64,000 bases of DNA from an uncultured Rhodospirillaceae bacterium (GTDB taxonomy: Bacteria; Pseudomonadota; Alphaproteobacteria; Rhodospirillales; UBA2165), in assembly GCA_964574215.1 (NCBI GenBank), contig CAZNLR010000010.1:9954-73953 (forward strand), read 5' to 3'. Positions within the stretch are counted from its first letter, which is position 1. Every line of letters begins with the position of its first letter. The notes beneath the pieces were generated by a model that did no database searches, had not been told where the DNA came from, and worked only from the letters and a program-made list of their open reading frames with translations. This document shows positions 17,190 to 64,000 of the stretch, piece after piece. The position numbers were made by a program, and so were the translations under genes.

Positions 17190-17211
17190 GGCCTGCCTCC
17201 CCCGTTCAGTC

Positions 17212-18402: not shown

Positions 18403-18423
18403 AAAGGAACTCCGTTAGTAGCT

Positions 18424-21056: not shown

Positions 21057-21065
21057 GGGAATATC

Positions 21066-34936: not shown

Positions 34937-34976
34937 CGCCTGTTTCTTTGAGTAAAATAGAGTAAGGGGAGTAACC

Positions 34977-38316: not shown

Positions 38317-38403
38317 AAAAGGGGACGGTCCCTGTTTTTCCGGATAATACGTACTCCCAATTTTTTTAGGGTCTTTTTTCCTCCTTGTTTTTGGGTTAAA
38401 ATG

Positions 38404-38427
38404 TTCGTAATACGAACAAAATTTTGT
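38404..38427. promoter_or_regulatory. Two abutting perfect palindromes upstream of the Mo-subunit gene (candidate operator)
   Basis: TTCGTAATACGAA (38404-38416) and ACAAAATTTTGT (38416-38427) lie 22-45 nt upstream of ATG 38449 in an AT-rich spacer. Confidence 0.3.
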
Positions 38428-38448
38428 TGATGATTTAATGGGTGAAAA

Positions 38449-46070: not shown

Positions 46071-47834
<1,764 letters not shown>

Positions 47835-50231: not shown

Positions 50232-50364
50232 AACAATGCTTTAATCCCTAAAATATGACGCTTTTTCTGAAATCCTTGCCGAAATCCAGGTAATTTCCCG
50301 GAATCTGGAGTTCGAATACCCGACGAATTTGATCGGATTTTTTTTCGGGGAATCTCAAAGGTCT

Positions 50365-50378
50365 TTGACTTAGGTCAA
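50365..50378. promoter_or_regulatory. FNR/NNR/Dnr-type box upstream of the heme-copper oxidase operon
   Basis: Perfect palindrome TTGAC-TTAG-GTCAA. It shares TCxTTGACTTA with the nirS box and lies 99 nt upstream of the first ATG (50478) of the operon. Confidence 0.65.
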
Positions 50379-50477
50379 GGACAGTCCTTTACCCCCCATG
50401 TTCAGTTGCAGGCTTAATGCGCTGGATCTGACGTCAGATGCCGGGGCTTTGTGGCAATCTAAACGAGGGGGACCATC

Positions 50478-50636
50478 ATGACGCCTTCCGACCAACCAAT
50501 GGATGAGCCGATTCCGTTCATGCAGCGGCTATTGGATAATCATTTCTTACTACTTTTTTTAGGAGTTGCTGTACCCACGGTACTTTATATCGTGTGGGGG
50601 ATCGTTGAGATCACGGCAATTCCCGTAGCTAAATAA
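50478..50636 (+). CDS. 52-aa single-pass membrane peptide (not in ORF track; candidate small oxidase subunit)
   Basis: ATG 50478 is preceded by GAGGGGGA (50465-50472). The product is MTPSDQPMDEPIPFMQRLLDNHFLLLFLGVAVPTVLYIVWGIVEITAIPVAK, ending at TAA 50634-50636. It has one clear TM helix and ends 17 nt before the subunit II start. Confidence 0.55.
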   Translation: MTPSDQPMDEPIPFMQRLLDNHFLLLFLGVAVPTVLYIVWGIVEITAIPVAK

Positions 50637-50653
50637 TAGAAGGGAGACACCAT

Positions 50654-51196
50654 ATGTCTATATTTCCTCCCGAAGAGCGCGTCTGGTGGAACACGCCTGT
50701 AGAGAAAACCGAAGTTCTCTGGGTCACCATCGCCTTCATCTGGGGTTTGATCATGTTCTTCATGATGCCCTATTGGCATTTCACCGGTAACCAGAATATG
50801 TCCAACGAGGCATATCAAATCAGCACTGACAGATATTCCGACCTCACTGAAGCTTTCGCGAAAAAATACAAAGTCCGTGAAGAAGGTGACACCGGCGTTC
50901 CCGTTGTTCGCCCGCCGGCAGGTTCCGACGTTTACCTGTTAGGTCGTCTTTGGGAGTGGTGGCCAATCCTCGAGCTTGAGAAAGGCAAAAGCTACCGCCT
51001 GCATCTTTCCTCGATGGATTACCAGCACGGCTTCTCCTTACAGCCGGAAAACATCAATATTCAGGTTCACCCCGGTTATGAATCGGTAATGACCGTAACA
51101 CCCACGACATCGGGTGAATTCGGCCTTATCTGTAACGAATTTTGCGGCATCGGCCATCACACCATGGTCAGCAAAATGTATGTCACCGATAAATAG
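50654..51196 (+). CDS. Heme-copper oxidase subunit II, CuA cupredoxin (ba3-like short form)
   Basis: 180 aa with one N-terminal TM helix. The complete CuA site is YQHGF ... CNEFCGIGHHTM. It aligns closely with my recollection of Thermus ba3 subunit II (ICNQYCGLGHQNM). Confidence 0.85.
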   Translation: MSIFPPEERVWWNTPVEKTEVLWVTIAFIWGLIMFFMMPYWHFTGNQNMSNEAYQISTDRYSDLTEAFAKKYKVREEGDTGVPVVRPPAGSDVYLLGRLWEWWPILELEKGKSYRLHLSSMDYQHGFSLQPENINIQVHPGYESVMTVTPTTSGEFGLICNEFCGIGHHTMVSKMYVTDK

Positions 51197-51209
51197 GAGG
51201 GCATGATAA

Positions 51210-52907
51210 ATGAGTAACGGTAATTTCCGTATCTGCCCGGACACCGGGTTTAAAGTTGATCTTCCCGGCGAAAAGCTGATCAAGATCAATGCTGTAACTG
51301 CTGTCGTCTTCCTTTTGATCGGCGGTCTCTTCGGCGTTCTCGTCGCCTTGACCCGTTGGCCGGAACTTCACATTCTGCCGGCTGACCTGTTCTACCTGGC
51401 GCTGACGGCGCATGGTCTCGATATCCTGCTGGTCTGGATTATCTTCTTCGAAATCGCCTTGTTGTATTTCTGTTCGTCGATTCTGCTGAATGTCAGATTG
51501 GCGATGCCGAAAATCGCCTGGCTGGCTTATTGGCTGATGCTGATTGGCGCTTTGATCACCAACGTCATCGTTTTGATGGGTGATTCGAATGTGATGTTCA
51601 CCTCTTATGTGCCGATGCAGGCCCATCCCGGGTTTTACCTTGGCATCATCATATTCGCCGTCGGCGCCTTGGTTGGTTGCGGTATCTTCTTCGGTACCCT
51701 GGTGATCGCCAAAAAGGAAAAAACCTATGAAGGTTCAGTTCCGCTGGTTACTTTTGGTGCGATAACGGCTGCCATTATTGCCGTATTCACCATCGCCTCC
51801 GGCGCGGTCATCCTGATCCCGACCTTGTTATGGTCGATGGATTTGATCTCCTACATCGATCCCTTGATGTACAAGATCGTCTGGTGGGCCATGGGACACT
51901 CTTCTCAGCAGATCAACGTTTCCGCCCATATCGCCGTATGGTACGCCATTGCCGCGATCCTGTTCGGCGCCAAACCGCTCTCTGAGAAAGTCAGCCGTTT
52001 CGCCTTCCTGATGTACATCCTGTTCCTGCAACTTGCTTCGGCTCACCACCTTCTGGTGGAACCGGCGCTCAGTTCCGAATGGAAAATCGTCAACACCTCC
52101 TACATGCTCTATCTGGCGGTGATGGCTTCCATGATCCACGGTCTGACAGTTCCGGGCGCGATCGAAGCTGCCCAGAGGAAAAAAGGTTACACCAACGGCT
52201 TGTTCGAATGGCTCCGCAAGGCGCCCTGGAGCAATCCGGTGTTCTCCGGCATGTTCCTGTCCTTGATCATGTTTGGCTTCCTCGGTGGTATCACCGGCGT
52301 CATCATGGGCGTCGAGCAGGTTAACATCATCATCCATAATACGCTGTACGTGCCAGGGCACTTCCACGGTACGGTTGCCGCGGGTACCACCTTGGCCTTC
52401 ATGGCGATAACCTACTGGCTGGTGCCGGTCCTCTTCCGGCGCGAGTTGATCCTGCCGGGTTGGGCCAAATGGCAGCCCTACATCTTCGCCATCGGCATCT
52501 CTTTGCTGTCTTTGGCTATGATGGGCGCTGGTACGTTGGGTGTTTCCCGCCGTCACTGGGACATCACCTTCGCCGACGCGGCGATCAAGTTTGATCACCC
52601 GGCCTTGGCGCATCTGATGATGGGTCTCAATGGTGTTGCGGCATTGATCTGCATGGTCGGTGGCTTCATGTTCATTGCCGTGATCGTGGGCTCCCTTCTG
52701 TGGGGTAAACATCGCGGATACGAACCGGCTCCGGAAGCGGCGGCCGAGGCCGAAGCGCCTCCTGCTTCGGCGATGTCGGCCCACGGCGATGCGGGCACCA
52801 TGGAAGTACCAGGGACATTTGTCCTGGCATTGGTCTTCCTGGCGACCTTCGTCCTCTACTACTTCGTGAACTGGAAGTTCTTGGCTTCCACGTGGGGTCT
52901 CAGCTAG
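51210..52907 (+). CDS. Heme-copper oxidase subunit I, B-family-like, lacking the cross-linked Tyr (candidate NO reductase catalytic subunit)
   Basis: 565 aa. The His ligands are retained (LTAHGLD; WWAMGH; SAHHLL; VPGHFHGTV). The helix VI motif reads GHSSQQINVSAH where ba3 has GHPIVYFWLLPAY. Confidence 0.75.
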   Translation: MSNGNFRICPDTGFKVDLPGEKLIKINAVTAVVFLLIGGLFGVLVALTRWPELHILPADLFYLALTAHGLDILLVWIIFFEIALLYFCSSILLNVRLAMPKIAWLAYWLMLIGALITNVIVLMGDSNVMFTSYVPMQAHPGFYLGIIIFAVGALVGCGIFFGTLVIAKKEKTYEGSVPLVTFGAITAAIIAVFTIASGAVILIPTLLWSMDLISYIDPLMYKIVWWAMGHSSQQINVSAHIAVWYAIAAILFGAKPLSEKVSRFAFLMYILFLQLASAHHLLVEPALSSEWKIVNTSYMLYLAVMASMIHGLTVPGAIEAAQRKKGYTNGLFEWLRKAPWSNPVFSGMFLSLIMFGFLGGITGVIMGVEQVNIIIHNTLYVPGHFHGTVAAGTTLAFMAITYWLVPVLFRRELILPGWAKWQPYIFAIGISLLSLAMMGAGTLGVSRRHWDITFADAAIKFDHPALAHLMMGLNGVAALICMVGGFMFIAVIVGSLLWGKHRGYEPAPEAAAEAEAPPASAMSAHGDAGTMEVPGTFVLALVFLATFVLYYFVNWKFLASTWGLS

Positions 52908-52931
52908 AGGGCTTTGCCACATATAATGTTC

Positions 52932-52965
52932 GGGGGCGGACTGAGAAATTTCTCAGTCCGCCCTC
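52932..52965 (+). promoter_or_regulatory. Strong intercistronic hairpin between subunit I and senC
   Basis: Perfect 13-bp stem GGGCGGACTGAGA/TCTCAGTCCGCCC (52934-52946 / 52951-52963) with an AATT loop. It is followed after 5 nt by only TTTT. It could be an attenuating terminator or an mRNA-stabilising element. Confidence 0.5.
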
Positions 52966-53036
52966 AGCATTTTGGGGTAAAATTTCCCTGCTGACTGTAG
53001 GGTTATTTTTGAATTTAAATAAAGTAAAATAGTACG

Positions 53037-53951
53037 ATGTTCAAAATTGAGATACGCAGAATACTGATGTTGGCTGGTTTGGCGCTGGCAGTGGCACCGA
53101 TGCTGGCGGCGCCGGAAAATCTGAGCATCGTTACACCGGCCTTCGGTGATGAAAACGGAAAACGCAAGTTCACCCGCGAATCGTTCCCGGGAGCGTCCAA
53201 GTTCAATCCCGAATCGGCCTACAAGTACAGCCAATCGGCCGTCGGGAAGACCATCGGCAATTACCGGTTCCTCGGTACTGACGGAAAAAGACTGAACCTG
53301 GATCAGTTCAGGGGAGAACCTTTGATCATCAGTATGGTTTATTCCAGCTGTTTCGATATCTGTCCGGCCATTACCATGAATCTGGCTTCCGCCGTCGACA
53401 AGGCGCGGAAAGTTTTGCCTGATAAAAAGTTCAACGTGATATCCATTGGTTTCGACACGTTGCACGATTCGCCCGCGGCCATGAAATTGTTCGCCCGCCA
53501 ATATGACGTCAGCGGCGACAATTGGAAGGTGGTCAGCGGCTCACCCGATGCGGTGGAGCGTTTGGCCGCCGATACCGGCTTCATATATTACAGGTCAGCC
53601 AGAGGATTCGACCATCTGATGCAGACCACCCTGGTGGACGCCGACGGCAAAGTGGACACCCAGATTTACGGCGAAAACTTCGACGCCACCCTTTTGGTTG
53701 AGCCCCTAAAACAACTTTATTTCGGCGGTATTGCCTCGGTGACGAACGTCGAATCCTTTGTCAATCGCGTGCGCCTGTTCTGCACCATCTATGATCCCAA
53801 GACAGACGCTTATAAATTTGATTACTCTTTTTTCATCGGCATGGCGTTAAGCGCTATCGTCCTCTTGCTGATGGGGAATTTTGTCGTCCGCAATGTGTGG
53901 CGGTTGTGGTTTTCCGATCACAAATCCGGCAACGGAACAGCAATGTCTTGA
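53037..53951 (+). CDS. senC: Sco1/SenC-family copper chaperone/thiol-disulfide protein with C-terminal TM extension
   Basis: 304 aa with a signal/anchor, the thioredoxin-fold CxxxCP motif (SSCFDICPAI) and the conserved His context GFDHL. An extra C-terminal TM segment is present (FFIGMALSAIVLLLMGNFVV). Confidence 0.8.
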   Translation: MFKIEIRRILMLAGLALAVAPMLAAPENLSIVTPAFGDENGKRKFTRESFPGASKFNPESAYKYSQSAVGKTIGNYRFLGTDGKRLNLDQFRGEPLIISMVYSSCFDICPAITMNLASAVDKARKVLPDKKFNVISIGFDTLHDSPAAMKLFARQYDVSGDNWKVVSGSPDAVERLAADTGFIYYRSARGFDHLMQTTLVDADGKVDTQIYGENFDATLLVEPLKQLYFGGIASVTNVESFVNRVRLFCTIYDPKTDAYKFDYSFFIGMALSAIVLLLMGNFVVRNVWRLWFSDHKSGNGTAMS

Positions 53952-53981
53952 TCTCCTGAAACTTTAAATTAGAATTGTCTA

Positions 53982-55586
53982 ATGTTAGAAAAAATCCAAA
54001 CTCCGCTGCAGGCGGCACTGTTAATCTTTGAGGGCTGGTTCGACCGCCCGTTAGGTCCCGACTGGAATCCGCTCCGCCATCTGGGCGCTTTGTCCTTCTT
54101 CTTTTTCTGGGTGGTCGTGGTTAGCGGCATTTATGTGTACATCTTTTTTGAAACCAGCGTATCCGGTGCCTACAGCTCTATCGAGCGCATGACCGTCGAT
54201 CACTGGTATTTCAGCGGCGTTATGCGAAGTTTTCACCGTTATGCCTCTGACGCCATGGTGGTGGTCGTTCTGCTGCATATGTTCCGTGAATTTATCATGG
54301 ACCGGTATCGCGGTATCCGCTGGTTTACCTGGGTCAGCGGAATTCCCACCATCTGGCTGCTTTATGCGTCGGGCATCGGCGGCTATTGGCTGGTGTGGGA
54401 CGAATTCGCCCAGTATCTCATCATCGCGTCTTCCGAATGGCTCGACTGGTTGGGTATTTTCGGTGAGCCTCTGGCCAATAATTTCCTGACCCGTGAAGCC
54501 TTCACGGACCGGATGTTTTCGCTGTTGCTGTTTCTCCATATCGCCATTCCGCTGTTCCTGCTGATCGCCAGTTGGATTCACGTCATCAAGATTTCCCGGC
54601 CCCGGATCAATCCGCCCAAAGGATTGGCCATCGGCACCATCGCCATGATGACCGTGTTGTCCTTGATAAAGCCGGCCGTCAGCGATACGCCCGCCGACCT
54701 CAGCATTGTGCCGCAGGAACTCAACCTGGATTGGTTCTATGCCCTGCTTTATCCGTTGTATGACAAGTGGGGCGCAGGGGCGCTGTGGATGATCACGGTC
54801 GGTGTGTCGTCCTTCTTGACCATCCTGCCTTGGTTGCCGCCGCAGAAAATCAATGATTCCGCCGAAGTCGACAATCTGAACTGCAACGGTTGTTCCCGTT
54901 GCTACACGGACTGCCCGTTCGGCGCCGTCACCATGCAGCCGCGAACCGACGGCAGGCCTTATCCGCGTATCGCCGAAGTCAATCCGGATATCTGTACGGC
55001 GTGCGGCATCTGCGTCGGGGCTTGCCCGACGGCGACACCGTTTCGCAGTCAGGATATGCTGGTAACGGGGATCGACCTGCCCAGGTACCGGTTGACGGAA
55101 CTGCGGGAAAGCACGGACAAGTCACTGGCGCAGTTGAAAGAGAAAGTATCCGGCGATAAGCCGCGCATCATTGTCTATGGCTGTGATTTCGGTATCGACG
55201 TTAAGCAGATCGACGCGCCCAACGTGGTGGTCACCAAACTCCCCTGTATCGGTATGCTGCCGCCGTCGTTTGTCGACTACATCCTGATGCGCGGTAAGGC
55301 CGACGGGGTCATGTTGACCGGTTGCCGGGAGGGTGATTGTTTCCACCGCTTCGGCATTCAATGGACGGAGCAGCGGATGGCCGGTGACCGGGATCCTTAC
55401 CTGAGAAAACGGGTGCCGGTTGAACGGGTGCGCACCTGCTGGGGTGCGGTAACAGACTCCAAAAAGCTTCATCAGGAAATAGCCGAGTTCGAGGCGCATT
55501 TGTCGGCGTTGCCGACGATCGAGGTTCTATCTCCTGAAAAACCGCGCAAACCCGTTGCGGACAAACCGAAAGGGGAGGCTGCGTGA
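53982..55586 (+). CDS. Fusion protein: di-heme cytochrome b (bc1/b6 N-terminal type) + 2x[4Fe-4S] ferredoxin + MvhD/FlpD-like domain
   Basis: 534 aa. The four His are in the cyt b pattern (RSFHRY, VLLHMF..GYWLVW, LFLHIA, SWIHVI). The ferredoxin motifs are CNGCSRCYTDCP and CTACGICVGACP. The MvhD-like segment is PRIIVYGCDFG...LPCIGMLPPSFVDYILMRGKADGVMLTGCREGDCFHRFG. Confidence 0.75.
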   Translation: MLEKIQTPLQAALLIFEGWFDRPLGPDWNPLRHLGALSFFFFWVVVVSGIYVYIFFETSVSGAYSSIERMTVDHWYFSGVMRSFHRYASDAMVVVVLLHMFREFIMDRYRGIRWFTWVSGIPTIWLLYASGIGGYWLVWDEFAQYLIIASSEWLDWLGIFGEPLANNFLTREAFTDRMFSLLLFLHIAIPLFLLIASWIHVIKISRPRINPPKGLAIGTIAMMTVLSLIKPAVSDTPADLSIVPQELNLDWFYALLYPLYDKWGAGALWMITVGVSSFLTILPWLPPQKINDSAEVDNLNCNGCSRCYTDCPFGAVTMQPRTDGRPYPRIAEVNPDICTACGICVGACPTATPFRSQDMLVTGIDLPRYRLTELRESTDKSLAQLKEKVSGDKPRIIVYGCDFGIDVKQIDAPNVVVTKLPCIGMLPPSFVDYILMRGKADGVMLTGCREGDCFHRFGIQWTEQRMAGDRDPYLRKRVPVERVRTCWGAVTDSKKLHQEIAEFEAHLSALPTIEVLSPEKPRKPVADKPKGEAA

Positions 55587-56089
55587 TGGGCCGTATTTTT
55601 GATATTCTCGGACAAGGCGTTGCTTATCTTCTGTTTGCGTTGTTTGTCGGGTATTTCGCCAACTCACCGCCTTACAGCCCGTTGGAAAAGGATCAGGCGC
55701 TGGTCAGGCTGAGCATCTCCTACCCCGGACAGCGCATTGCCGAATGCCGCAAGCTGTCGGCCAAGGAACTGCGCGCGAAGGCTCACAACATGCGCAAAGC
55801 CTTCGATTGCCCGCGGGAGCGTCACGCCGTGCGGATCGAGGTGCTGATGGATGGCAAGCCGTTATACGACGGCATCGTCTCGCCCTCGGGTTTGGCCAAT
55901 GACGGTAAATCCCTTTTCTACGAAAACTTTCCCGTTCCCGCCGGCGAACATACGCTGATGGCCCGGCTTTACGACAACGGCGCTAATAAAAAAGCCGGGT
56001 TTCAGGGTGAAAGAGCAGTGCAGCTTGCACCCGGCAAAGTCGCCATCGTCGGTTTCGACCATCGGGATCATAAAATTATGATCAAGTAG
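55583..56089 (+). CDS. Membrane-anchored protein of unknown function
   Basis: 168 aa. GTG 55583 or ATG 55586 overlaps the upstream stop, and AAAGGGGAGG SD lies upstream. It has one N-terminal TM helix (VAYLLFALFVGYF) followed by a soluble domain with no motif I recognise. Confidence 0.6.
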   Translation: MMGRIFDILGQGVAYLLFALFVGYFANSPPYSPLEKDQALVRLSISYPGQRIAECRKLSAKELRAKAHNMRKAFDCPRERHAVRIEVLMDGKPLYDGIVSPSGLANDGKSLFYENFPVPAGEHTLMARLYDNGANKKAGFQGERAVQLAPGKVAIVGFDHRDHKIMIK

Positions 56090-56103
56090 GGCGGCCCAAA
56101 AAT

Positions 56104-56323
56104 GGGGACAGGATCGTTTAGTATCCCCGCTACCGCCAATACCCAACCGAGTTCACAAAGCACACAGAGGCTGCCGGAATGGGACGGGGACATGAACTTG
56201 TTTCGTGTCCCCGAACCGTCCATCGGGAATTAAGTTAAGTATCGTGTCCCCGAACCGTCGTCCCCGAACAGTCCTGTCCTTTTTTCAAGCCTATTAACGG
56301 CCTGTCCCCCTCTCGGAGGACAG
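56104..56323. repeat. Cluster of short GGGGACA / TGTCCCC repeats including an 18-nt direct repeat
   Basis: TCGTGTCCCCGAACCGTC occurs at 56203-56220 and 56242-56259, with a partial third copy GTCCCCGAACAGTC at 56260-56273. GGGGACA occurs at 56104-56110 and 56186-56192. TGTCCCC also occurs at 56303-56309. Confidence 0.7.
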
Positions 56324-56509
56324 ACGCTGGCTGCGCGTGCGCCTATGAATCACCGTTAGAATTTCAATTTTGCCCATTTATATGGCTGAAATTAAACCTT
56401 TTCCTCCCATTTTTCAAATAATTCTAAAATTAACTAAAAAATTCTAACTTCTATTTGATTTTTTACTAAAGGTTTGATATCTTGTTGGCTGATTGACGAG
56501 GCCCCAAAA

Positions 56510-57157
56510 ATGCAAGAATTAAAATCAACTTATAAAACCGAGAAAAAAAGCCGCCGCCGCCGGGAAATTCTGGATGGGGCCGCTGCCGTAATTGCCGAGC
56601 ACGGCTATTTTGCCGCCTCAATGAAAGATATCGCTGATCGGCTCGATCTGAGACCCGGCAGTCTTTACTATTATCTCAAATCGAAGGAAGCCGCCCTCGA
56701 AGAAATCTGCTGGGACGGTGGCATGGAATATGTCTATTACGTCGAACGACTGGCCAAAAGCGGCGCGCCCGCCATGGAAATAATAAGATCAGCCATTAGT
56801 CATCACCTGAGAAATGAAAAACGCGATTACGTTGAATGTTTCGTTTACAACCGGCGTCATCTCGGTGGTGCAGTGGCCGATGGGTTGAACGATGTGGCGC
56901 GGCGATATCTGCGCGCCTGGATTGGGGTTTTTGAACAAGGCATAGAGGAAGGCGTTTTTTCGCTGGGTCTTGATTGCCGATTTGCTGCCACGACGGCGTT
57001 GTCGGTGGTAAACGGCGCGACGCTTGCCTTGAGGGGCAAAGGATCGGAGGAATCGGACCGGTATATTCGTCAAACCACGGAATTTTTTCTCACGGGACTG
57101 GGTGTCTCCGGATGCGGTGAGCCCGCCTACGTAAAAAAGAAAGTTGCCATCGGATAG
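56510..57157 (+). CDS. TetR/AcrR-family transcriptional regulator
   Basis: ATG 56510 is preferred over the TTG 56474 of the track. The HTH is RRREILDGAAAVIAEHGYFAASMKDIADRLDLRPGSLYYYLKSKEAAL. Confidence 0.85.
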   Translation: MQELKSTYKTEKKSRRRREILDGAAAVIAEHGYFAASMKDIADRLDLRPGSLYYYLKSKEAALEEICWDGGMEYVYYVERLAKSGAPAMEIIRSAISHHLRNEKRDYVECFVYNRRHLGGAVADGLNDVARRYLRAWIGVFEQGIEEGVFSLGLDCRFAATTALSVVNGATLALRGKGSEESDRYIRQTTEFFLTGLGVSGCGEPAYVKKKVAIG

Positions 57158-57223
57158 TAAGAGTTTTGATCAAGGGGAGGGGGTTTTCTCCCATTTAACA
57201 TTTCCAGGAAGGAGGAAATTAAC

Positions 57224-57871
57224 ATGACTGACCAATCAAAATTAGTAGACCTAATCGCCGGTATGGACGAAGAGCCCGCCGTCAAATTATCGGTCGAACT
57301 CATGGATGCGGGTACGCCGCCGGAAGATATTCTGGCCGCCTGCCGCCAAGCCATGGATATCGTCGGTAAGAAATTCGAGGAAGGCGAATTCTTTATTCCC
57401 GAGTTGATTCTGGCCGGTGAAATGCTGGAACAGATCGGTAACGAGGTGAAACCTCGCATTAAGGACACTGCCGGCCCGGCCAAGGAAACGTTGGGTACGG
57501 TGATCATCGGTACGGTGCACGGTGATTTGCACGATATCGGTAAAAATATCGTGACCTTCATGTTGGACGTGAACGGCTACGAAGTCATTGATCTTGGCGT
57601 CGACGTCAAACCGCAGGCTTTCATCGATGCTATCAAGGAAAGCTCGGCGCCCGTGGTGGGTCTCAGCGGTTTCCTGACCTTGGCGTTCGATTCCATGAAA
57701 GAAACGGTTGAAGCCATTACCGAGGCCGGTCTCCGCGATAACATTAAAATCATGATCGGCGGCGGACAGGTCGATGAACAAATCCGGACTTACACCGGCG
57801 CCGATTCCTTCGGTCTCAATGCCATGACCGCGGTATCGCAATGCCGGGAATGGATTGCCGAAGCCGCCTAA
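57224..57871 (+). CDS. Corrinoid (cobalamin-binding) protein of a methyltransferase system
   Basis: 215 aa with a GGAAGGAGG SD. It has an N-terminal helical cap plus a B12-binding Rossmann domain with DxHxxG (GDLHDIGKN) and GGG (IMIGGGQV). Confidence 0.85.
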   Translation: MTDQSKLVDLIAGMDEEPAVKLSVELMDAGTPPEDILAACRQAMDIVGKKFEEGEFFIPELILAGEMLEQIGNEVKPRIKDTAGPAKETLGTVIIGTVHGDLHDIGKNIVTFMLDVNGYEVIDLGVDVKPQAFIDAIKESSAPVVGLSGFLTLAFDSMKETVEAITEAGLRDNIKIMIGGGQVDEQIRTYTGADSFGLNAMTAVSQCREWIAEAA

Positions 57872-57896
57872 GCGGTAAACATGACACCAATCTAAG

Positions 57897-59321
57897 ATGG
57901 GTGGGGAAATGCTCGCACTACGAACATGGTCGGCACAGCATGCGCGTTTGGTCGAGATCGTCTATACGGCGTTCTCGCAGGCGGTAAAGCTGTTTACGCC
58001 CATTTTCCGGCGGGTTCCCCAATCCCTTTTAGAGGGGCCGGTCAAAGGCGTCGAACGTTGGGCCAAAGGCTTGATGTTCGATTGCCAGATGTGCGGCCAA
58101 TGCGTGCTCAGTGAAACGGGTATGTCGTGCCCCATGAACTGCCCCAAAAGTCTGCGCAACGGTCCCTGCGGCGGGGTATTCGAAGACGGCGGCTGCGAAG
58201 TGAAGCCGGAAATGCGCTGTGTCTGGTTTAACGCCTGGGACGGCGCCGGCCTGATGAAAAAAGGTGATACGATAAAAGATATCCGCCGACCACTGCGCCA
58301 AAGAATGGCTGGTAAATCAACCTGGGTTCCGATCATGCGGGGCGAGGGTGCCCGCCCGCCGTGGCTGGAGGATGATGACATTGACAGCGACTCCTCTGTC
58401 ACAAAACCGCCGCTCAGCCGTCTTCAGGAAATTTTGCAGGCGGGCGAGTTTGCCGTTACCTGCGAATATAATCCCCCGAATACGGTGATAACCGCCGATA
58501 TTGTGTCCAAAGCGGCATCGTTGGTCGAGGCGTGTGACGCCGTCAATGTCACCGATTGCGCCGGCGCGTATGTCCACATCTCCAGTCTGGCCACCTGCGC
58601 TATCTTGACCCGGGAAGGCGCCGAGCCGGTCATGCAGATGACGTGCCGAGACCGCAATCGCCTGGCCGTTCAGGCTGATATCATGGGGGCCGCGGCGCTG
58701 GGAATTAAGAACATTTTATGCATGACCGGTGATGCGGTCGAGGGCGGTGATCATCCCGACGGCAAGCCGGTTTTCGATCTGGATTCGTCTTCCCTGATCA
58801 GGACCGTTAAGCATATGCGGGATGAAAAAAGTTTTGTGACGGGGAAAGATCTGAAATCAGCCCCCAACCTTTTTATCGGTGGCACGGCCAATCCCATGGC
58901 GCCCTCGACGGAGATCGAAATCAACCGGATGATTAAAAAAGCCGCTGCCGGGGCGCAGTTTTTCCAAACTCAGTTCTGCTATGACATGGAACGGTTCGAG
59001 GCTTTCATGAGCGCCTACCGCGAAACCGGACTGCAAAAATCACGTCACCTGATTATCGGGATCGGCCCTTTGAATTCTGCCCGGGCGGCGCGTTGGATGA
59101 GGGAAAATATTCCCGGTGTCAGAATCCCGCGGGCCATCATCGACCGAATGGAAAGCGTCACAGACCAGAAAGCCGAAGGCCGCGAAATCTGCATAGAAAC
59201 CATCAACCAGTTGAAACATATAGACGGCGTATCCGGCGTTCACATCATGGCCATCAACCAGGAAAGCGCCATTCCGGAAATTGTAAAACGGGCTGAAATC
59301 GGCCCACAATTTAGGAACTAG
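57897..59321 (+). CDS. metF: Fusion of a MetV-type Cys-rich (MTHFR_C) domain with methylenetetrahydrofolate reductase (MetF)
   Basis: 474 aa. The N-terminal ~150 aa carry CQMCGQC-x8-CPMNCPK-x5-PCGG. The remainder is a MetF TIM barrel (FAVTCEYNPP, VNVTD, MQMTCRDRNR, NILCMTGD). Confidence 0.75.
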   Translation: MGGEMLALRTWSAQHARLVEIVYTAFSQAVKLFTPIFRRVPQSLLEGPVKGVERWAKGLMFDCQMCGQCVLSETGMSCPMNCPKSLRNGPCGGVFEDGGCEVKPEMRCVWFNAWDGAGLMKKGDTIKDIRRPLRQRMAGKSTWVPIMRGEGARPPWLEDDDIDSDSSVTKPPLSRLQEILQAGEFAVTCEYNPPNTVITADIVSKAASLVEACDAVNVTDCAGAYVHISSLATCAILTREGAEPVMQMTCRDRNRLAVQADIMGAAALGIKNILCMTGDAVEGGDHPDGKPVFDLDSSSLIRTVKHMRDEKSFVTGKDLKSAPNLFIGGTANPMAPSTEIEINRMIKKAAAGAQFFQTQFCYDMERFEAFMSAYRETGLQKSRHLIIGIGPLNSARAARWMRENIPGVRIPRAIIDRMESVTDQKAEGREICIETINQLKHIDGVSGVHIMAINQESAIPEIVKRAEIGPQFRN

Positions 59322-59328
59322 GGATATT

Positions 59329-60567
59329 ATGAATAAAGACTCCAAAGAATTATTCGACGAACGCCGTCAGCGCATTGCCGATCAAGTGGCGTTGAAAGAG
59401 ACCGACCGGATTCCGTTTTTCTATTCGACCCGGTTCTGGGCGGCGACCTTGGACGGCATTACCTTTGAAGAATCCATGTACGACGTGGAAAAAGCCGTCA
59501 AATCCAATACAAGAGCCATTGAACTGTTGCAGCCGGACGCTTTCTCACCGGCCTGCCATCCCTTCGGCCAGGCCATGGAAATAATGGACTACCATCCTGT
59601 TGAGTGGCCGGGTCATGGCACCGATCCCAATGCTTGTTTTCAATATATCGACAAGGAGTTTATGCCCGCCGATGAATACGACGAGTATCTGACCGACCCG
59701 ACAAATTTCTACATGCAGAAATATCTGCCCAGGATCGGCGGCGCTTTCGAAGGGCTCAAGCACTTTCCCGAATTCACCACCTTATCGGAATGGAGCCTGA
59801 TCAGCGGTATGCGGGCTTTCGCCAATCCTGAACTGCAGGAATCCTTTAAGCGCCTGATGGAGGCCGGCGAACTGGTCGATGCCGCCATGAACCGGGTGAC
59901 CGAGTTTATGAAGGAGATGATCGCGTTGGGTTATCCCATGGCTGCCGGCGGGTTCTGCAAGGCACCCTACGACCACATCGTCGACTTTCTGCGGGGCTCC
60001 AAGGGCGGCATGCTGGATATGTTCCGCCACAAGGACAAGATGCTGGAAGTGATCGAAAAAGCGCGGCTCAAACTGATCAAGGGTGTCGCCGAAGGGGCCA
60101 AGAAAGTCGACTGCCCGTATGTCTTTATCCCTCTTCATTGGGGGCTGGACGGGTTCATGTCGCCGGATCAGTTTAAGACCTTCTATTGGCCGGGACTGCA
60201 CAGGACCCTCATGTATTTTATCGAGCAGGACATTGTCCCCGTCGTTCTGTGGGAAGGTGATTGCACCACGCGCTTGGAAATGATCGGGGACGTTCCCGCC
60301 GGCAAGGCCGTCTATTGGTTTGAACGCACCGATCTGGTTCAAGCCAAGGAAGTGCTCGGCGACGTTGTCTGCCTGCGGGGCAATGTGCCTGCCTCACTGC
60401 TCAACACCGGTACGCCCGATGAAGTAGATGACTACTGCAAAAATTTAATTGAGAAAGTCGGTAAGGGCGGCGGCTTCATGCTGGACGGTGCCGCCAGTAT
60501 CCCAGATGAATCACCGACGGAAAACATCGTCGCCATGGCCGAGTCGGTCAGAAAGTATGCCAATTAA
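59329..60567 (+). CDS. Uroporphyrinogen-decarboxylase (URO-D)-family methyltransferase, paralog 1
   Basis: 412 aa. It has a URO-D/MtaA-like TIM-barrel pattern with a C-terminal block (VFIPLHWGLDGFMSPDQF...LWEGDC...LRGNVP) shared with the next gene. Confidence 0.65.
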   Translation: MNKDSKELFDERRQRIADQVALKETDRIPFFYSTRFWAATLDGITFEESMYDVEKAVKSNTRAIELLQPDAFSPACHPFGQAMEIMDYHPVEWPGHGTDPNACFQYIDKEFMPADEYDEYLTDPTNFYMQKYLPRIGGAFEGLKHFPEFTTLSEWSLISGMRAFANPELQESFKRLMEAGELVDAAMNRVTEFMKEMIALGYPMAAGGFCKAPYDHIVDFLRGSKGGMLDMFRHKDKMLEVIEKARLKLIKGVAEGAKKVDCPYVFIPLHWGLDGFMSPDQFKTFYWPGLHRTLMYFIEQDIVPVVLWEGDCTTRLEMIGDVPAGKAVYWFERTDLVQAKEVLGDVVCLRGNVPASLLNTGTPDEVDDYCKNLIEKVGKGGGFMLDGAASIPDESPTENIVAMAESVRKYAN

Positions 60568-60586
60568 TTTTAAGGAGGGGGAACCC

Positions 60587-61834
60587 ATGTCAGATAAAAG
60601 CGGTGAAGAACTTTATGCGGAGCGCGTGCAACGCATTCGGGACAATATTGACCTGAAGGAAACCGACCGGGTTCCCTACACATTTTTCTCCCACTTCTGG
60701 TCGGCGACGCTGGCGGAGATGACGTTCGAAGACGCGATGTATGATTACGACCGCTACAACGACGCCATGCGCAAGACCATGGAAGTCCTCAATCCCGACG
60801 ACTACGCCATGACGCAAATATTTATCAGTCTGGGACCGACCCTGGAACGCATGGGTTTCAAGCAACTGGAATGGCCGGGCCACGGCACCGATCCCAACGT
60901 GTCCTATCAGTTTTTGGATCAGGAATATATGTCGGCGGACGAATACGACGACTATTTGCGCGACCCGACGGGCTTTTTCCTGCGTAAATATATGCCGCGG
61001 GTGGCGACGGCGTTTGAGCCTTTGGCCATGCTGCCCAATTTCTCCTCGCTTTATTACACCAAGATGATCCGGGCGACGACGGCTTTCGCCAATCCCAAAC
61101 TGATGGCGGGGTTCGAGGAAATTGCCGAAGCCGGCCGGGAAATGCGCAAAATGATGGGGGGCGCCATCGCCTTCACCCAGGAAATGGAGGCGCTTGGTTA
61201 TCCGCAGAGCATCGGCGGTACGGCGGCGGCACCGTTCGATCATTTCGCCGACTATCTGCGCGGCTCCAAGGGCGCCATGCTGGATATGTTCCGTCACAAA
61301 GACAAGCTTTTGGAAGCCATGGACAAGGCGGCTTACTTCATCGCCGAAGACACCATCGAAGCCACCAAGCACAATCCCTGTAAGCAGGTGTTTATTCCTC
61401 TCCATTGGGGATTGGATGGCTTTATGTCACCGGATCAGTTCAACACCTTCTTCTGGCCGCAATTGCGAAAAATCATCCTGATGCTAATCGAAGCAGATTT
61501 GACGCCTTGCGTATTGTGGGAAGGTGACTGCGATACGCGGCTTGAATTCATCGGCGATATTCCGGAGAAAAAAGCCGTTTACTGGTTCGAAAAAACCGAT
61601 CTCAAAAAAGCCAAAGACGTGCTGGGCGATGTGGTTTGCCTGCGCGGTAACGTGCCGTCCTCCATGTTGACCACCGGTACGCCCGACGATGTCGATGAGT
61701 TCTGCAAGGACCTCATCAAATATGTGGGTAAGGGTGGCGGCTTTATTTTGGACGGCGCCATCGGCGTGCCGGACGAGGCGAAGACCGAGAATGTGGTCGC
61801 CATGGCGCAATCCGTTCACAAATACGCCAACTAG
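60587..61834 (+). CDS. URO-D-family methyltransferase, paralog 2
   Basis: ATG 60587 after AAGGAGGGGG is preferred. The track start 60449 lies inside the previous gene. 415 aa, collinear with paralog 1. Confidence 0.65.
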   Translation: MSDKSGEELYAERVQRIRDNIDLKETDRVPYTFFSHFWSATLAEMTFEDAMYDYDRYNDAMRKTMEVLNPDDYAMTQIFISLGPTLERMGFKQLEWPGHGTDPNVSYQFLDQEYMSADEYDDYLRDPTGFFLRKYMPRVATAFEPLAMLPNFSSLYYTKMIRATTAFANPKLMAGFEEIAEAGREMRKMMGGAIAFTQEMEALGYPQSIGGTAAAPFDHFADYLRGSKGAMLDMFRHKDKLLEAMDKAAYFIAEDTIEATKHNPCKQVFIPLHWGLDGFMSPDQFNTFFWPQLRKIILMLIEADLTPCVLWEGDCDTRLEFIGDIPEKKAVYWFEKTDLKKAKDVLGDVVCLRGNVPSSMLTTGTPDDVDEFCKDLIKYVGKGGGFILDGAIGVPDEAKTENVVAMAQSVHKYAN

Positions 61835-61844
61835 GAAACGAAGC

Positions 61845-62528
61845 ATGCCCGTCGTCACTCAATGGCCCGCTCTGCTGTCTCTGGAGAACCTCTGGAAATG
61901 GCACGGCATCAAATGCCGGGGCGGCCTGCATCCCAAGTTCAAGGAGATGGCGCCGGACGTGTTGGCGGAAGCTGAGGAAATGCAACTGCTACAGCCGAAA
62001 ATGGTCTACGAGGTGCTTCCGGTGGAGGACATGGGCGATTTGCTGTCTGAAATGCCCAATGCGGCGGCACGCATTAAGGATGCATCGAAATTGGCGGTAG
62101 CGGTAGCCACCATTGGGCCGGGTATCGAAAACCGGATCAATGAGCTGTTCGTTCAGAAAAAGGCGATGAAGGCTCTGGTCTACGAGGAACTTGGCGTTGC
62201 CGCCATGTTCAAACTTTCCAACGAAGTGCTGAAATACCTTCAACGGCAGGCGTCGGAACTGGACCTTGATCCCAGCGGTCCTCTCCATCCCGGTGATAAC
62301 GATGCCGATATTTTTCTCCAACACCAGGTCCATGAATTGGTGGATGGCGGCCTCATCGATGTGTCGGTGATCGAATCGGGTATGTTGAAACCGGCCAAAT
62401 CGCTTTCGATTCTTGTCGGCTACGGCGAAGGACTAATCAGGTGGCGGAGAGAAGAAAACTGCGAGACCTGCCAGATACGGGATGTTTGCCGCTACAGAAA
62501 TAATGAAACGGAACTGGCACTAGCATGA
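61845..62528 (+). CDS. Methionine-synthase-activation-domain-like protein (Met_synt_B12-like); function uncertain
   Basis: ATG 61845 is used, because the track start 61689 lies inside the previous gene. 227 aa. The segments GPLHPGDND and SGMLKPAKSLSILVGYG resemble the RPAPGYP and SVSG elements of the MetH reactivation domain. The C-terminus has CETCQIRDVC. Confidence 0.45.
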   Translation: MPVVTQWPALLSLENLWKWHGIKCRGGLHPKFKEMAPDVLAEAEEMQLLQPKMVYEVLPVEDMGDLLSEMPNAAARIKDASKLAVAVATIGPGIENRINELFVQKKAMKALVYEELGVAAMFKLSNEVLKYLQRQASELDLDPSGPLHPGDNDADIFLQHQVHELVDGGLIDVSVIESGMLKPAKSLSILVGYGEGLIRWRREENCETCQIRDVCRYRNNETELALA

Positions 62529-64000
62529 GCGCATTAAAAAAAGAGGAACCGAACAATAAAATCGCTTTTCTGCCGATGGAGGAAACCATCGACAACGTGC
62601 CGGGCGAGACCGTTCTCGATTCGGCCCGGCGGTCGCGTATTCGGATTGCCAGTTCGTGCGGCGGTCACGGCACCTGTGTCTCCTGCGCCGTACAATTTAC
62701 CGGTGGAATGATTCCCGAACCGGCGCAAGCCGACCGTGACGTATTCTCCGAACGCCGCCTCGAAGAAGGCTGGCGGCGGGCCTGCCTAACCAAGCTGGAA
62801 GGCGACTGCACCATTTTTGTTCCGCCCCGTGCGACGGCGGCGCCGGTGAGGACCCAGGTCGACGGCCAGGCGGAATTGATCGATTTCGAACCGGCGGTTC
62901 AGGTTATTCCCTTCGAACTACCGCCCGCCGATCTGGAAGATTGCCGGTCCGACGATCAGCGCTTGCGGGATGCGCTCGAAGGAGAACATCCCGGCGCCTG
63001 TGACAAGTTCGACGCCGCCCTGCTGCGGACCCTCGCCGATGACCTTCGAGCCTGGAAGTGGCATGGTTGGATCGCGTCCTGCGAAAGCGAAGTTATCGCC
63101 GCCGGTCCCAAAGACGGACATGTTCTTGGACTGGCGGTTGATCTCGGCACCACCAATGTATCCGGTTTTCTGGTCGATATGGCGACGGGGGAGACCCTGG
63201 CGGCTGAAGGCTTGGCCAATCCCCAGACGGTCTATGGGGCTGATTTGATAACCTACGCCTCCCAAATCAGGCGCAATCCGGAAGTCGCGGTGACCTTGCA
63301 GCAATTGGCCATTGATGCGCTCAATCAGCTGGCTGACGATCTTTGCGACTCATGCGGTATGGAAAAGGAGAATATCGTCGAGGTAACGGTGGCGGGTAAT
63401 ACCATGATGCATCATCTGCTGCTGGGTCTGCCGGTTCGTCAATTGGCCATGTCGCCCTTTGTCTCGGCCCTTAGTGACGCCTTCGACCTTAAAGCCCGCG
63501 GCCTGGGCGTCGATATAGCGCCAGGTGCCTACATTCATCTTTTGCCCAACATCGCCGGCTTTATCGGCGGCGACCATGTGGCAAGCCTCCTGGCCTCTCC
63601 GCCGGAAGACGACCGGCCGGTGATCATCATGGACATCGGCACCAATACGGAAATCTCCCTGGTGGAGGGCGAAAACATCACCTCCGTTTCCTGCCCGTCC
63701 GGTCCGGCCTTCGAGGGCGGTCACATCACCTGCGGCATGCGGGCGGCCAATGGCGCCATCGAGATGGTCAGGATCAAGGAAAACGACGTCCAGCTGGATG
63801 TGATCGGTGACGAAGCACCCGTGGGCCTGTGTGGTTCCGGCGTGCTTGACGTTACCGCGCAAATTCATCTGGCGGGCGTATGCGATGAGCGAGGACGGCT
63901 CTTGGAAGACAACCCCCATGTCCGCGTTATCGACGGTAAACGCCATTTTGTCTTGGCCGATGAAGAAAAGGCGGGCGGTCCTACGGCCATTACTTTCTCC
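62525..64000 (+). CDS. RACo-type reductive activase of corrinoid enzymes (2Fe-2S ferredoxin + ASKHA ATPase), 3' end outside window
   Basis: Not in the ORF track because no stop is reached. ATG 62525 overlaps the upstream stop (ATGA), and the frame is open for 492 codons to the window end. It has the N-terminal plant-type 2Fe-2S motif SSCGGHGTCVSCAV...C and the ASKHA phosphate motifs AVDLGTTN and IMDIGTNTE. Confidence 0.8.
   Translation, partial: MSALKKEEPNNKIAFLPMEETIDNVPGETVLDSARRSRIRIASSCGGHGTCVSCAVQFTGGMIPEPAQADRDVFSERRLEEGWRRACLTKLEGDCTIFVPPRATAAPVRTQVDGQAELIDFEPAVQVIPFELPPADLEDCRSDDQRLRDALEGEHPGACDKFDAALLRTLADDLRAWKWHGWIASCESEVIAAGPKDGHVLGLAVDLGTTNVSGFLVDMATGETLAAEGLANPQTVYGADLITYASQIRRNPEVAVTLQQLAIDALNQLADDLCDSCGMEKENIVEVTVAGNTMMHHLLLGLPVRQLAMSPFVSALSDAFDLKARGLGVDIAPGAYIHLLPNIAGFIGGDHVASLLASPPEDDRPVIIMDIGTNTEISLVEGENITSVSCPSGPAFEGGHITCGMRAANGAIEMVRIKENDVQLDVIGDEAPVGLCGSGVLDVTAQIHLAGVCDERGRLLEDNPHVRVIDGKRHFVLADEEKAGGPTAITFS

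Follow-up and report, generated by a model that had tools for sequence, protein, structure and literature searches.

A probable corrinoid-dependent methyl-X:tetrahydrofolate methyltransferase operon in an uncultured denitrifying Rhodospirillaceae bacterium, with relatives across respiring bacteria

We analyzed 64,000 nucleotides of contig CAZNLR010000010.1 (positions 9,954 to 73,953; hereafter the window) from an uncultured marine, oxygen-minimum-zone (OMZ) Rhodospirillaceae denitrifier, concentrating on a run of co-directional genes at its 3′ end that includes two members of the uroporphyrinogen decarboxylase (URO-D) superfamily. This locus very probably represents the first two-thirds of a catabolic operon for corrinoid-dependent methyl-X:tetrahydrofolate (THF) methyl transfer, and the same mechanism acting specifically on an aromatic methoxy substrate is, on balance, the version that we favor. 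The evidence comprised the gene content of the window, a metagenomic contig that continues the operon, the conservation of the same module in other uncultured lineages, and comparisons with solved structures and characterized systems. The features of the locus within the window were as follows.

56510-57157, forward strand: TetR-family regulator, 215 amino acids (aa) (PF00440 (TetR_N) E 2.5e-12; PF17932 (TetR_C_24) E 6.5e-9; start in agreement with gene callers)
57224-57871, forward strand: corrinoid (B12-binding) methyl-carrier protein, 215 aa (PF02607 (B12-binding_2) and PF02310 (B12-binding))
57897-59321, forward strand: MetV-MetF fusion, 474 aa (PF12225 E 5e-24; PF02219 E 2.5e-46)
59329-60567, forward strand: putative URO-D-superfamily methyltransferase, paralogue 1 (URO-D #1), 412 aa (PF01208 E 2e-18)
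60587-61834 (start corrected), forward strand: putative URO-D-superfamily methyltransferase, paralogue 2 (URO-D #2), 415 aa (PF01208 E 9e-18)
61845-62528 (start corrected), forward strand: stand-alone homologue of the MetH activation domain, 227 aa (profile match only)
62525-64000 (window edge; 492 of 616 aa), forward strand: RACo/RamA-type ATP-dependent reductive activase (Fer2, RACo_linker, Raco_middle and RACo_C_ter; PF00111, PF17650, PF17651, PF14574)
56409-56477, no strand: AT-rich stretch with overlapping imperfect inverted repeats, 30-100 bp 5′ of the TetR start (I1: 20-nt arms, 75% complementarity; I2: 15-nt arms, 80%)

A preliminary description of this DNA, made from the sequence itself, had listed seven co-directional genes with these domains, all of which were recovered with small corrections of start positions, and had given the spacing as gaps of 7-66 bp or overlaps; in order, the gaps were 66, 25, 7, 19, and 10 bp, followed by a 4-bp overlap. 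The corrinoid protein carried its DxHxxG motif as GDLHDIGKN, with GDLHDIGKNIV kept in 47 homologues, and its best NCBIfam models (MtbC, pyl_corrinoid, and MtgC) all scored under their own cut-offs. The MetV-MetF protein, for which an alternative start at 57909 would give 470 aa, is a methylene-THF reductase with a Cys-rich MetV domain at its N-terminus. The AT-rich repeat stretch 5′ of TetR is a weak candidate for a promoter or operator; promoter and terminator scans of the cluster were at or below chance, the promoter scan returning nothing above it. Long antisense open reading frames (ORFs) over the cluster were composition artefacts.

An exact-protein look-up of URO-D #1 led to nine metagenome contigs, the longest of which (L001, 39 kb, ENA sample ERZ23498905) matched window positions 49301-64000 at 99.8% identity and is therefore from the same genome. 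The window ends inside the RACo gene, which is the reason why no pterin-binding, MttB, or MtaB gene is found in it, as the preliminary description had correctly observed. Its headline, that the system lacks a methyl-to-THF transferase, did not survive extension of the sequence past position 64000: the operon continues on L001 (extension read from 13197-19097; RACo there is 616 aa), with a PF00809 gene that is kept in ~30 related loci. The genes beyond RACo were as follows.

Start at window-equivalent 64394 (394 bp past the window end), forward strand: pterin-binding methyltransferase (methyltransferase II, MT II), 293 aa (PF00809 Pterin_bind E 2e-12)
On L001, 4-bp overlap with the pterin methyltransferase, co-directional: Amidohydro_1 amidohydrolase, 396 aa
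L001 17170-19097, co-directional, gaps of 20-35 bp, 3′ of the amidohydrolase: 4HBT thioesterase, 1-Cys peroxiredoxin, and enoyl-CoA hydratase

Because L001 continues the operon with the pterin methyltransferase, the operon comprises at least nine genes, possibly twelve, and the route of the methyl group to THF is no longer puzzling; the apparent gap was a window-edge artefact. The pterin methyltransferase gene begins 19 bp 3′ of the RACo stop codon, and its product had methyltetrahydrofolate:corrinoid/iron-sulfur protein methyltransferase as its best NCBIfam model. Its best solved relatives were the Carboxydothermus MeTr (2yci, E 3e-13) and MT II of the Desulfitobacterium hafniense O-demethylase (4o0q, E 2e-9), and the pterin-site motifs SFD, NSI, and GGLSN were kept in 34 homologues. 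The enoyl-CoA hydratase at the far end was best matched by an oxepin-CoA hydrolase/PaaG-like model. 4HBT thioesterases were also seen near URO-D genes in L025 and L077.

We mapped twelve L001 proteins onto 77 related loci and clustered the flanking ORFs separately. A core consisting of the corrinoid protein, one to three URO-D genes, the 227-aa protein, RACo, and the pterin methyltransferase was present in ~30 loci from six phyla, and the module recurred in metagenome-assembled genomes (MAGs) of Alpha-, Beta-, and Gammaproteobacteria, Actinobacteria, Acidobacteria, and Myxococcota, with tight or overlapping junctions. The corrinoid gene adjoined a URO-D gene in ~39 loci, and the gene for the 227-aa protein was adjacent to and directly 5′ of RACo in 35 loci (median overlap between the two genes: 4 bp). 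MetV-MetF was found in 15 of 32 module loci, mostly those with the amidohydrolase, and the amidohydrolase itself in 17 of the 32, always directly 3′ of the pterin methyltransferase (median gap 2 bp, range -7 to 11). The latter pair, a pterin methyltransferase with a COG1228-type amidohydrolase, occupies L001 15066-17134 (window-equivalent ~64394-66462) and was seen in 17 related loci, unbroken and often overlapping in Alphaproteobacteria, Gammaproteobacteria, and Actinobacteria even where the module was otherwise shuffled. Block order varied across phyla, and because the 227-aa/RACo and pterin methyltransferase/amidohydrolase pairs were never broken, a physical or functional coupling within each is suggested. 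More than 20 modules paired a single URO-D gene, which could be of either paralogue type, with a pterin methyltransferase, so no URO-D protein is needed as MT II; the second URO-D gene of the window is probably an extra substrate-side enzyme and not a stand-in for the folate-side one. TetR was not conserved with the module in other lineages.

The amidohydrolase has conserved metal ligands (HxH, Lys, two His, and Asp), and its nearest solved relatives were ochratoxin amidases (8ihq, 9l6p, 4c5y) together with prolidases and Arg/Lys carboxypeptidases (3mtw, 3be7), which hydrolyze N-acyl or peptidyl L-amino acids. Two features suggest that it works on the folate side, namely its fixed place behind the pterin methyltransferase and its tendency to occur together with MetV-MetF, and we speculate, by analogy to purU of the cmu cluster, that it could be a formyl-THF hydrolase; a comparably speculative alternative is the release of aromatic acids from amide conjugates.

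The locus belongs to a large, uncultured, and unnamed family, and the gene family is widespread. The nearest genome, a Tara-type MAG ("Rhodospirillaceae bacterium NP992"), had the same gene order at 93% amino-acid identity, and the exact URO-D #1 protein was found in marine metagenomes from JGI and ENA. Homologues of URO-D #1 formed more than 2000 clusters at 90% identity, and an exhaustive HMMER search gave 267 clusters (50% identity) at E <= 1e-30 and 1299 at E <= 1e-10. The best 80 genome matches of URO-D #1 included marine OMZ Rhodospirillaceae/Rhodospirillales, groundwater Betaproteobacteria, Gammaproteobacteria, Xanthobacteraceae, and Rhodobacteraceae, as well as Actinobacteria, peat and soil Acidobacteriota, Myxococcota, and Desulfobacterota. 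Individual genomes held 2-7 URO-D paralogues, several of them four to seven. In public databases, these proteins are named "uroporphyrinogen decarboxylase family protein", "uroporphyrinogen-III decarboxylase", or "hypothetical", and our literature searches, which dealt with O-demethylation in denitrifiers, with methoxydotrophy beyond the anaerobes, and with proteobacterial corrinoid methyltransferases of the URO-D type, returned no description of this URO-D clade; in the eLignin review, matches were confined to the reference list. A search of plasmids returned one distant Sporomusa homologue (25% identity), in an uninformative context.

The two URO-D proteins of the window are 55% identical to each other, and in both the PF01208 match was confined to the C-terminal half. 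Curated models for HemE, MtaA, MtbA, and MtaA/CmuA gave 17-36 bits against cut-offs of 235-600, and the only strong match to both among solved structures was CdmB of Acetobacterium dehalogenans (9rui; E 6e-29 and 26% identity for URO-D #1, E 4e-31 and 29% identity for URO-D #2). For URO-D #1, the MtaA/CmuA and HemE models gave 17-31 bits against cut-offs of 235-400. Uroporphyrinogen decarboxylase (UROD) structures reached E 0.02-0.2 (HemE against URO-D #1: E 0.036), and MtaA was not among the phmmer matches at E <= 1. Judged from these comparisons, the two proteins are neither HemE nor MtaA-type enzymes. Specifically, identity with HemE was rejected at TIGR01464 scores of 17.1 and 25.5 bits against a cut-off of 303, with only the C-terminal third aligned, and an MtaA/CmuA-type (SCMT) identity was rejected at 22-36 bits against cut-offs of 235-600 and with the HxC...C zinc motif missing. 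The earlier view of the pair as methyltransferase-like rather than HemE thus agrees with both the model scores and the CdmB match. CdmB is the chloromethane-specific substrate-side methyltransferase (methyltransferase I, MT I) of the CdmBCA system, published in 2026; its authors grouped it with the aromatic O-demethylases MtvB, OdmB, and VdmB, found its closest relative in archaeal MtoB (31% identity), described its substrate cavity as hydrophobic and metal-free, and identified UROD as the nearest fold (PMC13222342). By its similarity to CdmB, URO-D #1 probably acts as an MT I that moves the substrate methyl group to cob(I)amide, and URO-D #2 probably as a second MT I with another substrate range.

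An AlphaFold2 model of URO-D #1 (predicted local distance difference test score, pLDDT, 86.7) showed a UROD/MtaA-like barrel with a large helical insertion. A Foldseek search of the PDB with this model placed URODs on top (template modelling score, TM, 0.57-0.59) in a library older than the CdmB release, and could not tell the branches of UROD, MtaA, and the O-demethylases apart. Only one part of the model fell to pLDDT <50: the loop of residues 92-107 of URO-D #1 (59329-60567), which carries a family-invariant WPG(H)G and could be a mobile lid or a docking site for the corrinoid protein. Residues invariant in 81 family members include H270, D274, E309, R315, C348, D215, D219, R222, D230, and D393; at the aligned positions CdmB has Trp/Tyr for H270 and Gln for E309. 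H270, E309, and C348 lie on successive, separate strands, the HxC motif is absent, and the three residues could form a metal site for activation of a leaving group or a thiol. A zinc site made of H270, C312, and C348 was considered and dropped, since C312 was not conserved across the 81 members. From these residues, the substrate of the family may be more polar than a haloalkane, and a metal may be involved.

In the case of the 227-aa protein, single-sequence Pfam and NCBIfam scans returned nothing and a word-indexed homologue search returned only three close relatives; its homology surfaced only through a profile built from 20 homologues taken from locus translations. This profile found Thermotoga TM0269 (1J6R), which serves a split MetH as its stand-alone reactivation module, with E 9e-13 and an alignment spanning residues 21-201, almost the full length; MetH activation domains followed at E 2e-6 to 2e-5. 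Both results bear out the "MetH-activation-like" label that the protein had been given; PF02965 matched weakly in 4 of the 20 members. The RxxxGY motif, which defines S-adenosylmethionine (AdoMet) binding, reads RISPGY in TM0269 and PLHPGD in the window protein, and the family consensus keeps only PG. Because the motif is so reduced, AdoMet-dependent reductive methylation by the 227-aa protein seems doubtful. The family instead has an invariant C-terminal CxxCx5C (C205, C208, and C214), and its neighbor, full-length RACo (616 aa), matched an AcsV-type model at E 7e-118 and has an N-terminal [2Fe-2S] ferredoxin domain. Small accessory proteins pair with RamA/RACo-type activases elsewhere, namely DUF1638 in Phaeobacter and Ruegeria (PMC12478193, PMC5764234) and MecG with MecH in the mec cassette (bioRxiv 10.1101/2021.08.30.458270). 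By its position and family, the 227-aa protein probably acts with RACo in ATP-driven Co(II) reduction, perhaps by holding the carrier in an activation conformation or by passing electrons.

The preliminary description had assigned these parts to a three-component corrinoid system of the O-demethylase type, and the parts list agrees: putative MT I proteins nearer to CdmB than to HemE or MtaA, a separate corrinoid protein, a pterin MT II, and a RACo/RamA activase. The Mtv (Moorella), Odm (Acetobacterium dehalogenans), Vdm, and Desulfitobacterium O-demethylases and CdmBCA likewise combine a URO-D MT I, a separate carrier, an MT II that delivers the methyl group to THF, and a RACo-type activase, and it is the MT II of the Desulfitobacterium system whose structure (4o0q) was matched here. 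These systems differ from ours in that their hosts are acetogens or organohalide respirers, whereas the module here is found in respiring Proteobacteria, Actinobacteria, and Acidobacteria; in the MT I clade, which here is distinct (26-29% identity to CdmB); and in the extra conserved genes here, the MetH-activation-like protein overlapping RACo, the amidohydrolase coupled to MT II, and MetV-MetF. Moreover, a Wood-Ljungdahl context is absent here, and the methyl group is proposed to be oxidized with its electrons passing to the respiratory chain. A closer parallel in lifestyle is the Cmu chloromethane pathway (cmuA, cmuB, metF2, folD, and purU), which reportedly works in aerobic methylotrophs and in which a URO-D-type module and a pterin-type methyltransferase carry out corrinoid-dependent methyl transfer to THF, followed by MetF oxidation, in a non-anaerobe. 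CmuA, however, fuses the methyltransferase and corrinoid domains, in contrast to the separate carrier, the RACo activase, and the URO-D proteins falling below the MtaA/CmuA model here.

MtgBCD, together with RamA, DUF1638, and MetF2, works in aerobic Ruegeria pomeroyi, where metF2 adjoins mtgD (PMC12478193), and a split MetH with a RamA-like activase works in Phaeobacter inhibens (PMC5764234). Shared with MtgBCD(E) and the Phaeobacter split methionine synthase are the corrinoid protein, the pterin methyltransferase, the RamA/RACo-like activase with a small accessory protein, a MetF paralogue beside the pterin methyltransferase, several MT I per genome on one core, and hosts among non-anaerobic marine Alphaproteobacteria. 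They differ in that the MT I of MtgBCD is of the MttB family (pfam06253) and acts on glycine betaine, whereas the candidates here are of the URO-D family; in that the accessory protein is DUF1638 and MetF a plain paralogue, as opposed to a MetH-activation homologue and a MetF fused to MetV; and in that a homocysteine-binding module is not linked here. Identity with MtgBCD was accordingly rejected: no MttB-family gene was called in the operon or its extension, and the MT I candidates are PF01208 proteins. The mec dichloromethane cassette, which also occurs in Eastern Pacific OMZ metagenomes, resembles the locus in its corrinoid protein, its URO-D-type methyltransferases, and the pairing of a RACo-type activase with a small accessory partner (MecGH) (bioRxiv 10.1101/2021.08.30.458270). 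It was rejected as an identification, given that MecF is of the MtrH family as opposed to PF00809 here, that MecE satisfies the MtaA/CmuA model TIGR01463 and the URO-D proteins here fail it, that the marine order mecBCFGHE is unlike the order here, and that mec is without MetV-MetF or an amidohydrolase. Type 1 mlp clusters are without a THF methyltransferase and are confined to obligate anaerobes (Kountz and Balskus, PMC10418091), and Mlps are ~30% identical to MtaA, MtbA, and MtsA, with which they branch (PMC10418091). This identity was likewise rejected, in view of the pterin methyltransferase present here, the low similarity to SCMT models, and the heme-copper oxidase and ring oxygenase genes of the host. 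With MtgBCD and Cmu both placed in aerobes, the statement in the preliminary description that such systems are proper to strict anaerobes is outdated, and confinement of corrinoid methyl transfer to strict anaerobes is no longer tenable. What differs here is a distinct URO-D clade in respiring bacteria together with the three extra conserved genes.

For clues to the substrate, we annotated ~60 neighbors in loci that we picked for inspection, with the following results.

L016 (Rhodospirillaceae): Rieske + VanA_C oxygenase ending 47 bp 5′ of MetV-MetF; extradiol dioxygenase, GntR regulator, and acyl-CoA dehydrogenase nearby
L050, L052, and L053 (Actinobacteria): homologues of the L016 oxygenase 1-1.3 kb 3′ of RACo; IclR and MarR regulators
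L049 (Alphaproteobacteria): VanB-like reductase 5′ of MetV-MetF; esterase; PaaK-like CoA ligase 37 bp 3′ of the amidohydrolase
L049: true PobA (TIGR02360, 650 bits against a cut-off of 539) 3 kb upstream
L032, L055, and L072: molybdoenzymes with a pyrogallol-hydroxytransferase-like first domain (PF21423, E 6e-28) beside URO-D genes, as a divergent neighbor in L055
L072: 4-hydroxybenzoyl-CoA-reductase-like (Hcr-like) Mo-hydroxylase ending 22 bp 5′ of the corrinoid gene; CoA ligase and MFS transporter
Window 38449-40791: HcrA, true alpha subunit of 4-hydroxybenzoyl-CoA reductase (TIGR03194, 1163 bits against a cut-off of 995)

Additionally, Peripla_BP_6 ABC transporters, enoyl-CoA hydratases, acyl-CoA dehydrogenases, 4HBT thioesterases, and CoA ligases were found repeatedly near the module. 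The Peripla_BP_6 family is said to bind lignin-derived aromatic acids in Rhodopseudomonas. In the window, HcrA is preceded directly by the five genes of a Peripla_BP_6/Liv-type ABC transporter (33668-38316) and by a Crp/Fnr regulator; it stands alone in this stretch (33668-40791), where genes for HcrB or HcrC were not called beside it. 4-Hydroxybenzoate, protocatechuate, and gallate/pyrogallol are the expected demethylation products of 4-methoxybenzoate, vanillate, and syringate, respectively. Because aromatic-catabolic neighbors recur across lineages and in the window itself, aryl methyl ethers (methoxylated aromatic acids) are the best substrate candidate on circumstantial evidence, and gene neighborhoods both here and elsewhere lend support to the earlier guess of O-demethylation.

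In the mechanism that we propose, the two URO-D proteins would act as alternative MT I enzymes, transferring a substrate methyl group to the Co(I) corrinoid of the 215-aa carrier, from which the pterin-binding MT II would pass it to THF; MetV-MetF would then oxidize methyl-THF to methylene-THF for C1 oxidation or assimilation. RACo and the MetH-activation-like protein would re-reduce accidentally oxidized Co(II) at the expense of ATP, and TetR would govern expression. The likeliest substrates would be methoxylated aromatic acids of the 4-methoxybenzoate, vanillate, or syringate type, in which case the system would be an O2-independent O-demethylase that lets a nitrate/nitrite respirer use methoxylated aromatics without oxygenases. 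We infer the catabolic direction of methyl flow from the 2-7 paralogues per genome, the TetR regulator, and the linkage of MetF to the pterin methyltransferase. Extended to the clade as a whole, and offered only tentatively, the proposal is that its members are the O2-independent aryl-methyl-ether O-demethylases of nitrate-respiring and other non-acetogenic bacteria. In OMZs as well as in groundwater, peat, and soil, methoxy groups from lignin-derived and other aromatics would then enter folate-linked C1 oxidation, with denitrification coupled to it. Two of the participating proteins would have no described counterpart in the acetogen systems: a MetH-activation-like protein with a Cys motif, as partner of RACo, and an amidohydrolase in functional coupling with the folate-side methyltransferase, where it could hydrolyze formyl-THF or aroyl amino acids, for instance.

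Several points weigh against this reading. The aromatic neighbors were found in a minority of loci, selected for inspection, and clustering of the flanking ORFs brought no transporter or aromatic/catabolic genes into the conserved core. HcrA of the window is 16 kb from the operon, with denitrification genes between, and three solo paralogues have other neighbors beside them: a sulfotransferase; MetE-like proteins with GCV_T; and hydantoinase A/B. The CdmB alignment covers only the ~235-240 C-terminal residues, at 26-29% identity, a metal site at H270/E309/C348 would not fix the direction of transfer, and the conserved amidohydrolase is without a role in the proposed model. Moreover, the best 80 genome matches of URO-D #1 were all MAGs and no member of the URO-D clade is characterized, with look-ups of clusters for cultured or named members giving only metagenome or MAG entries under generic names.

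The same machinery could run in the same direction on a methyl halide, on methylated sulfur (methylmercaptopropionate, dimethylsulfoniopropionate, methanethiol, or dimethyl sulfide), or on a seawater N-methyl compound, a possibility that we regard as less likely. CdmB, the closest solved relative, is haloalkane-specific and rejects methoxylated aromatics; the many invariant charged residues of the family (D215, D219, R222, D230, D274, E309, R315, and D393) would suit polar or zwitterionic substrates; and OMZ water is rich in methyl halides and in methylated sulfur and nitrogen osmolytes, while some paralogues adjoin sulfotransferase, hydantoinase, or MetE-like genes. However, the hydrophobic, metal-free cavity of CdmB is met in this family by invariant His270 and Glu309, every known system for quaternary amines relies on an MttB-family enzyme, aromatic-catabolic neighbors recur in three phyla, and the family is also common in MAGs from peat, soil, and groundwater. 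A reversal of the pathway is improbable. In such a biosynthetic scheme, MetV-MetF would make methyl-THF, the pterin protein would load the corrinoid in the manner of MetH or AcsE, and the URO-D protein would methylate a thiol or other acceptor as MtaA does, amounting to a split MetH-like methylase. Marine Alphaproteobacteria do have split B12-dependent methionine synthases with a separate corrinoid protein, pterin protein, and RamA-like activase, the 227-aa protein is homologous to the MetH reactivation domain, MtaA-type URO-D enzymes methylate thiols, and invariant His270, Glu309, and Cys348 could form a thiol-activating zinc site. Against this stand the scores of the URO-D proteins far under the MtaA, MtbA, and CmuA models, the missing HxC motif, the TetR-type repressor as regulator, an MT I as the closest characterized relative, and 2-7 paralogues per genome scattered beside catabolic genes, which would be unexpected for a biosynthetic enzyme.

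The presence of two paralogues in the window also recalls the archaeal Mto system, in which MtoA-type URO-D enzymes have reportedly been proposed to methylate tetrahydromethanopterin, and one of the pair could by that analogy be a methyl-corrinoid:pterin methyltransferase, which would close the apparent gap within the window itself. We consider this most improbable: the gene after RACo encodes a canonical pterin-binding MT II, more than 20 modules are complete with a lone URO-D gene, and the paralogues are 55% identical, with each type able to be the sole URO-D gene. Least credible of all is that the proteins are genuine uroporphyrinogen decarboxylases or that the locus is a fragment of cobalamin or haem biosynthesis or salvage. 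The public annotation "uroporphyrinogen-III decarboxylase" and the URODs at the top of the Foldseek list would fit it, but the Foldseek library predates CdmB, whose own nearest fold is UROD, and TIGR01464 gave 17-25 bits against 303, UROD structures gave E 0.02-0.2 against 1e-29 to 1e-31 for CdmB, PF01208 matched in the C-terminal half only, and no cobalamin biosynthesis or salvage genes were found in the operon. We thus retain the catabolic methyl-X:THF system with aryl methyl ethers as the best candidate donors.

Beside some URO-D paralogues, we noted two further gene types. MetE-like (PF01717 Meth_synt_2) proteins of ~370-400 aa were located near URO-D paralogues in L085 (6914-15783) and also in L011, L020, and L080, and one Xanthobacteraceae locus had three MetE-like copies, accompanied by a GCV_T-family gene and a gene for a periplasmic binding protein; the MetE-like proteins could be another methyltransferase class on the same corrinoid core. 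Hydantoinase A/B genes (oxoprolinase/acetophenone-carboxylase family) were located beside the module or solo URO-D genes in two unrelated lineages (L009-L011, ~19500-21200; L024, L026, and L086, 1-3525).

The wider window contained NirS (46071-47828, reverse strand), NosR, and a heme-copper-oxidase family gene, as well as an island at 5-10 kb with LigB, HpaB, Amidohydro_2, and a RraA-type aldolase, in line with the denitrification genes and LigB-type island noted earlier in the same 64 kb; the host genome also has O2-dependent ring oxygenase genes. Beside NirS, the stretch 48030-53951 encodes NosR, then a very divergent homologue of heme-copper-oxidase subunit I (565 aa; 70 bits with the CtaD model, whose cut-off is 671), then a SCO1/SenC protein; these genes possibly form an atypical cluster for nitric-oxide reductase. 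A 694-aa ORF (43895-45979, reverse strand) with NirS on one side and a TAXI-TRAP transporter on the other had no Pfam or NCBIfam match at E <= 1e-5. Upstream of the operon (53982-56089) lies a gene for a 534-aa fusion protein in which cytochrome b is joined to two [4Fe-4S] motifs and an FlpD/MvhD-like domain, followed by an overlapping gene for a 168-aa protein without a family match; on L001 the fusion is split into 218 and 309 aa, with a 28-bp length difference between the assemblies. The MvhD-like domain of the fusion, so near to the MetV-MetF operon, could point to a path for electrons, and we considered the fusion as the outlet for those from MetV-MetF. We did not adopt this idea, since the fusion is shared only with the closest relative (L007) and not conserved with the module.

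To our knowledge, the biochemistry of anaerobic aromatic demethoxylation has been described only in acetogens, Desulfitobacterium, and a few archaea, and respiring anaerobes such as denitrifiers are usually thought to need oxygenases or partner organisms for demethylation. If the proposed role is true, nitrogen loss in aquifers, peat, and low-oxygen waters would be tied directly, through the operon, to the demand for vitamin B12 and to carbon from methoxylated (lignin-derived) compounds. The operon would also provide a marker gene set for O2-independent O-demethylation by denitrifying and facultative bacteria, and would offer two uncharacterized accessory proteins for study. Should the substrate be a different one, the family would still constitute a large, unassigned group of B12-dependent methyltransferases outside the classical anaerobes.

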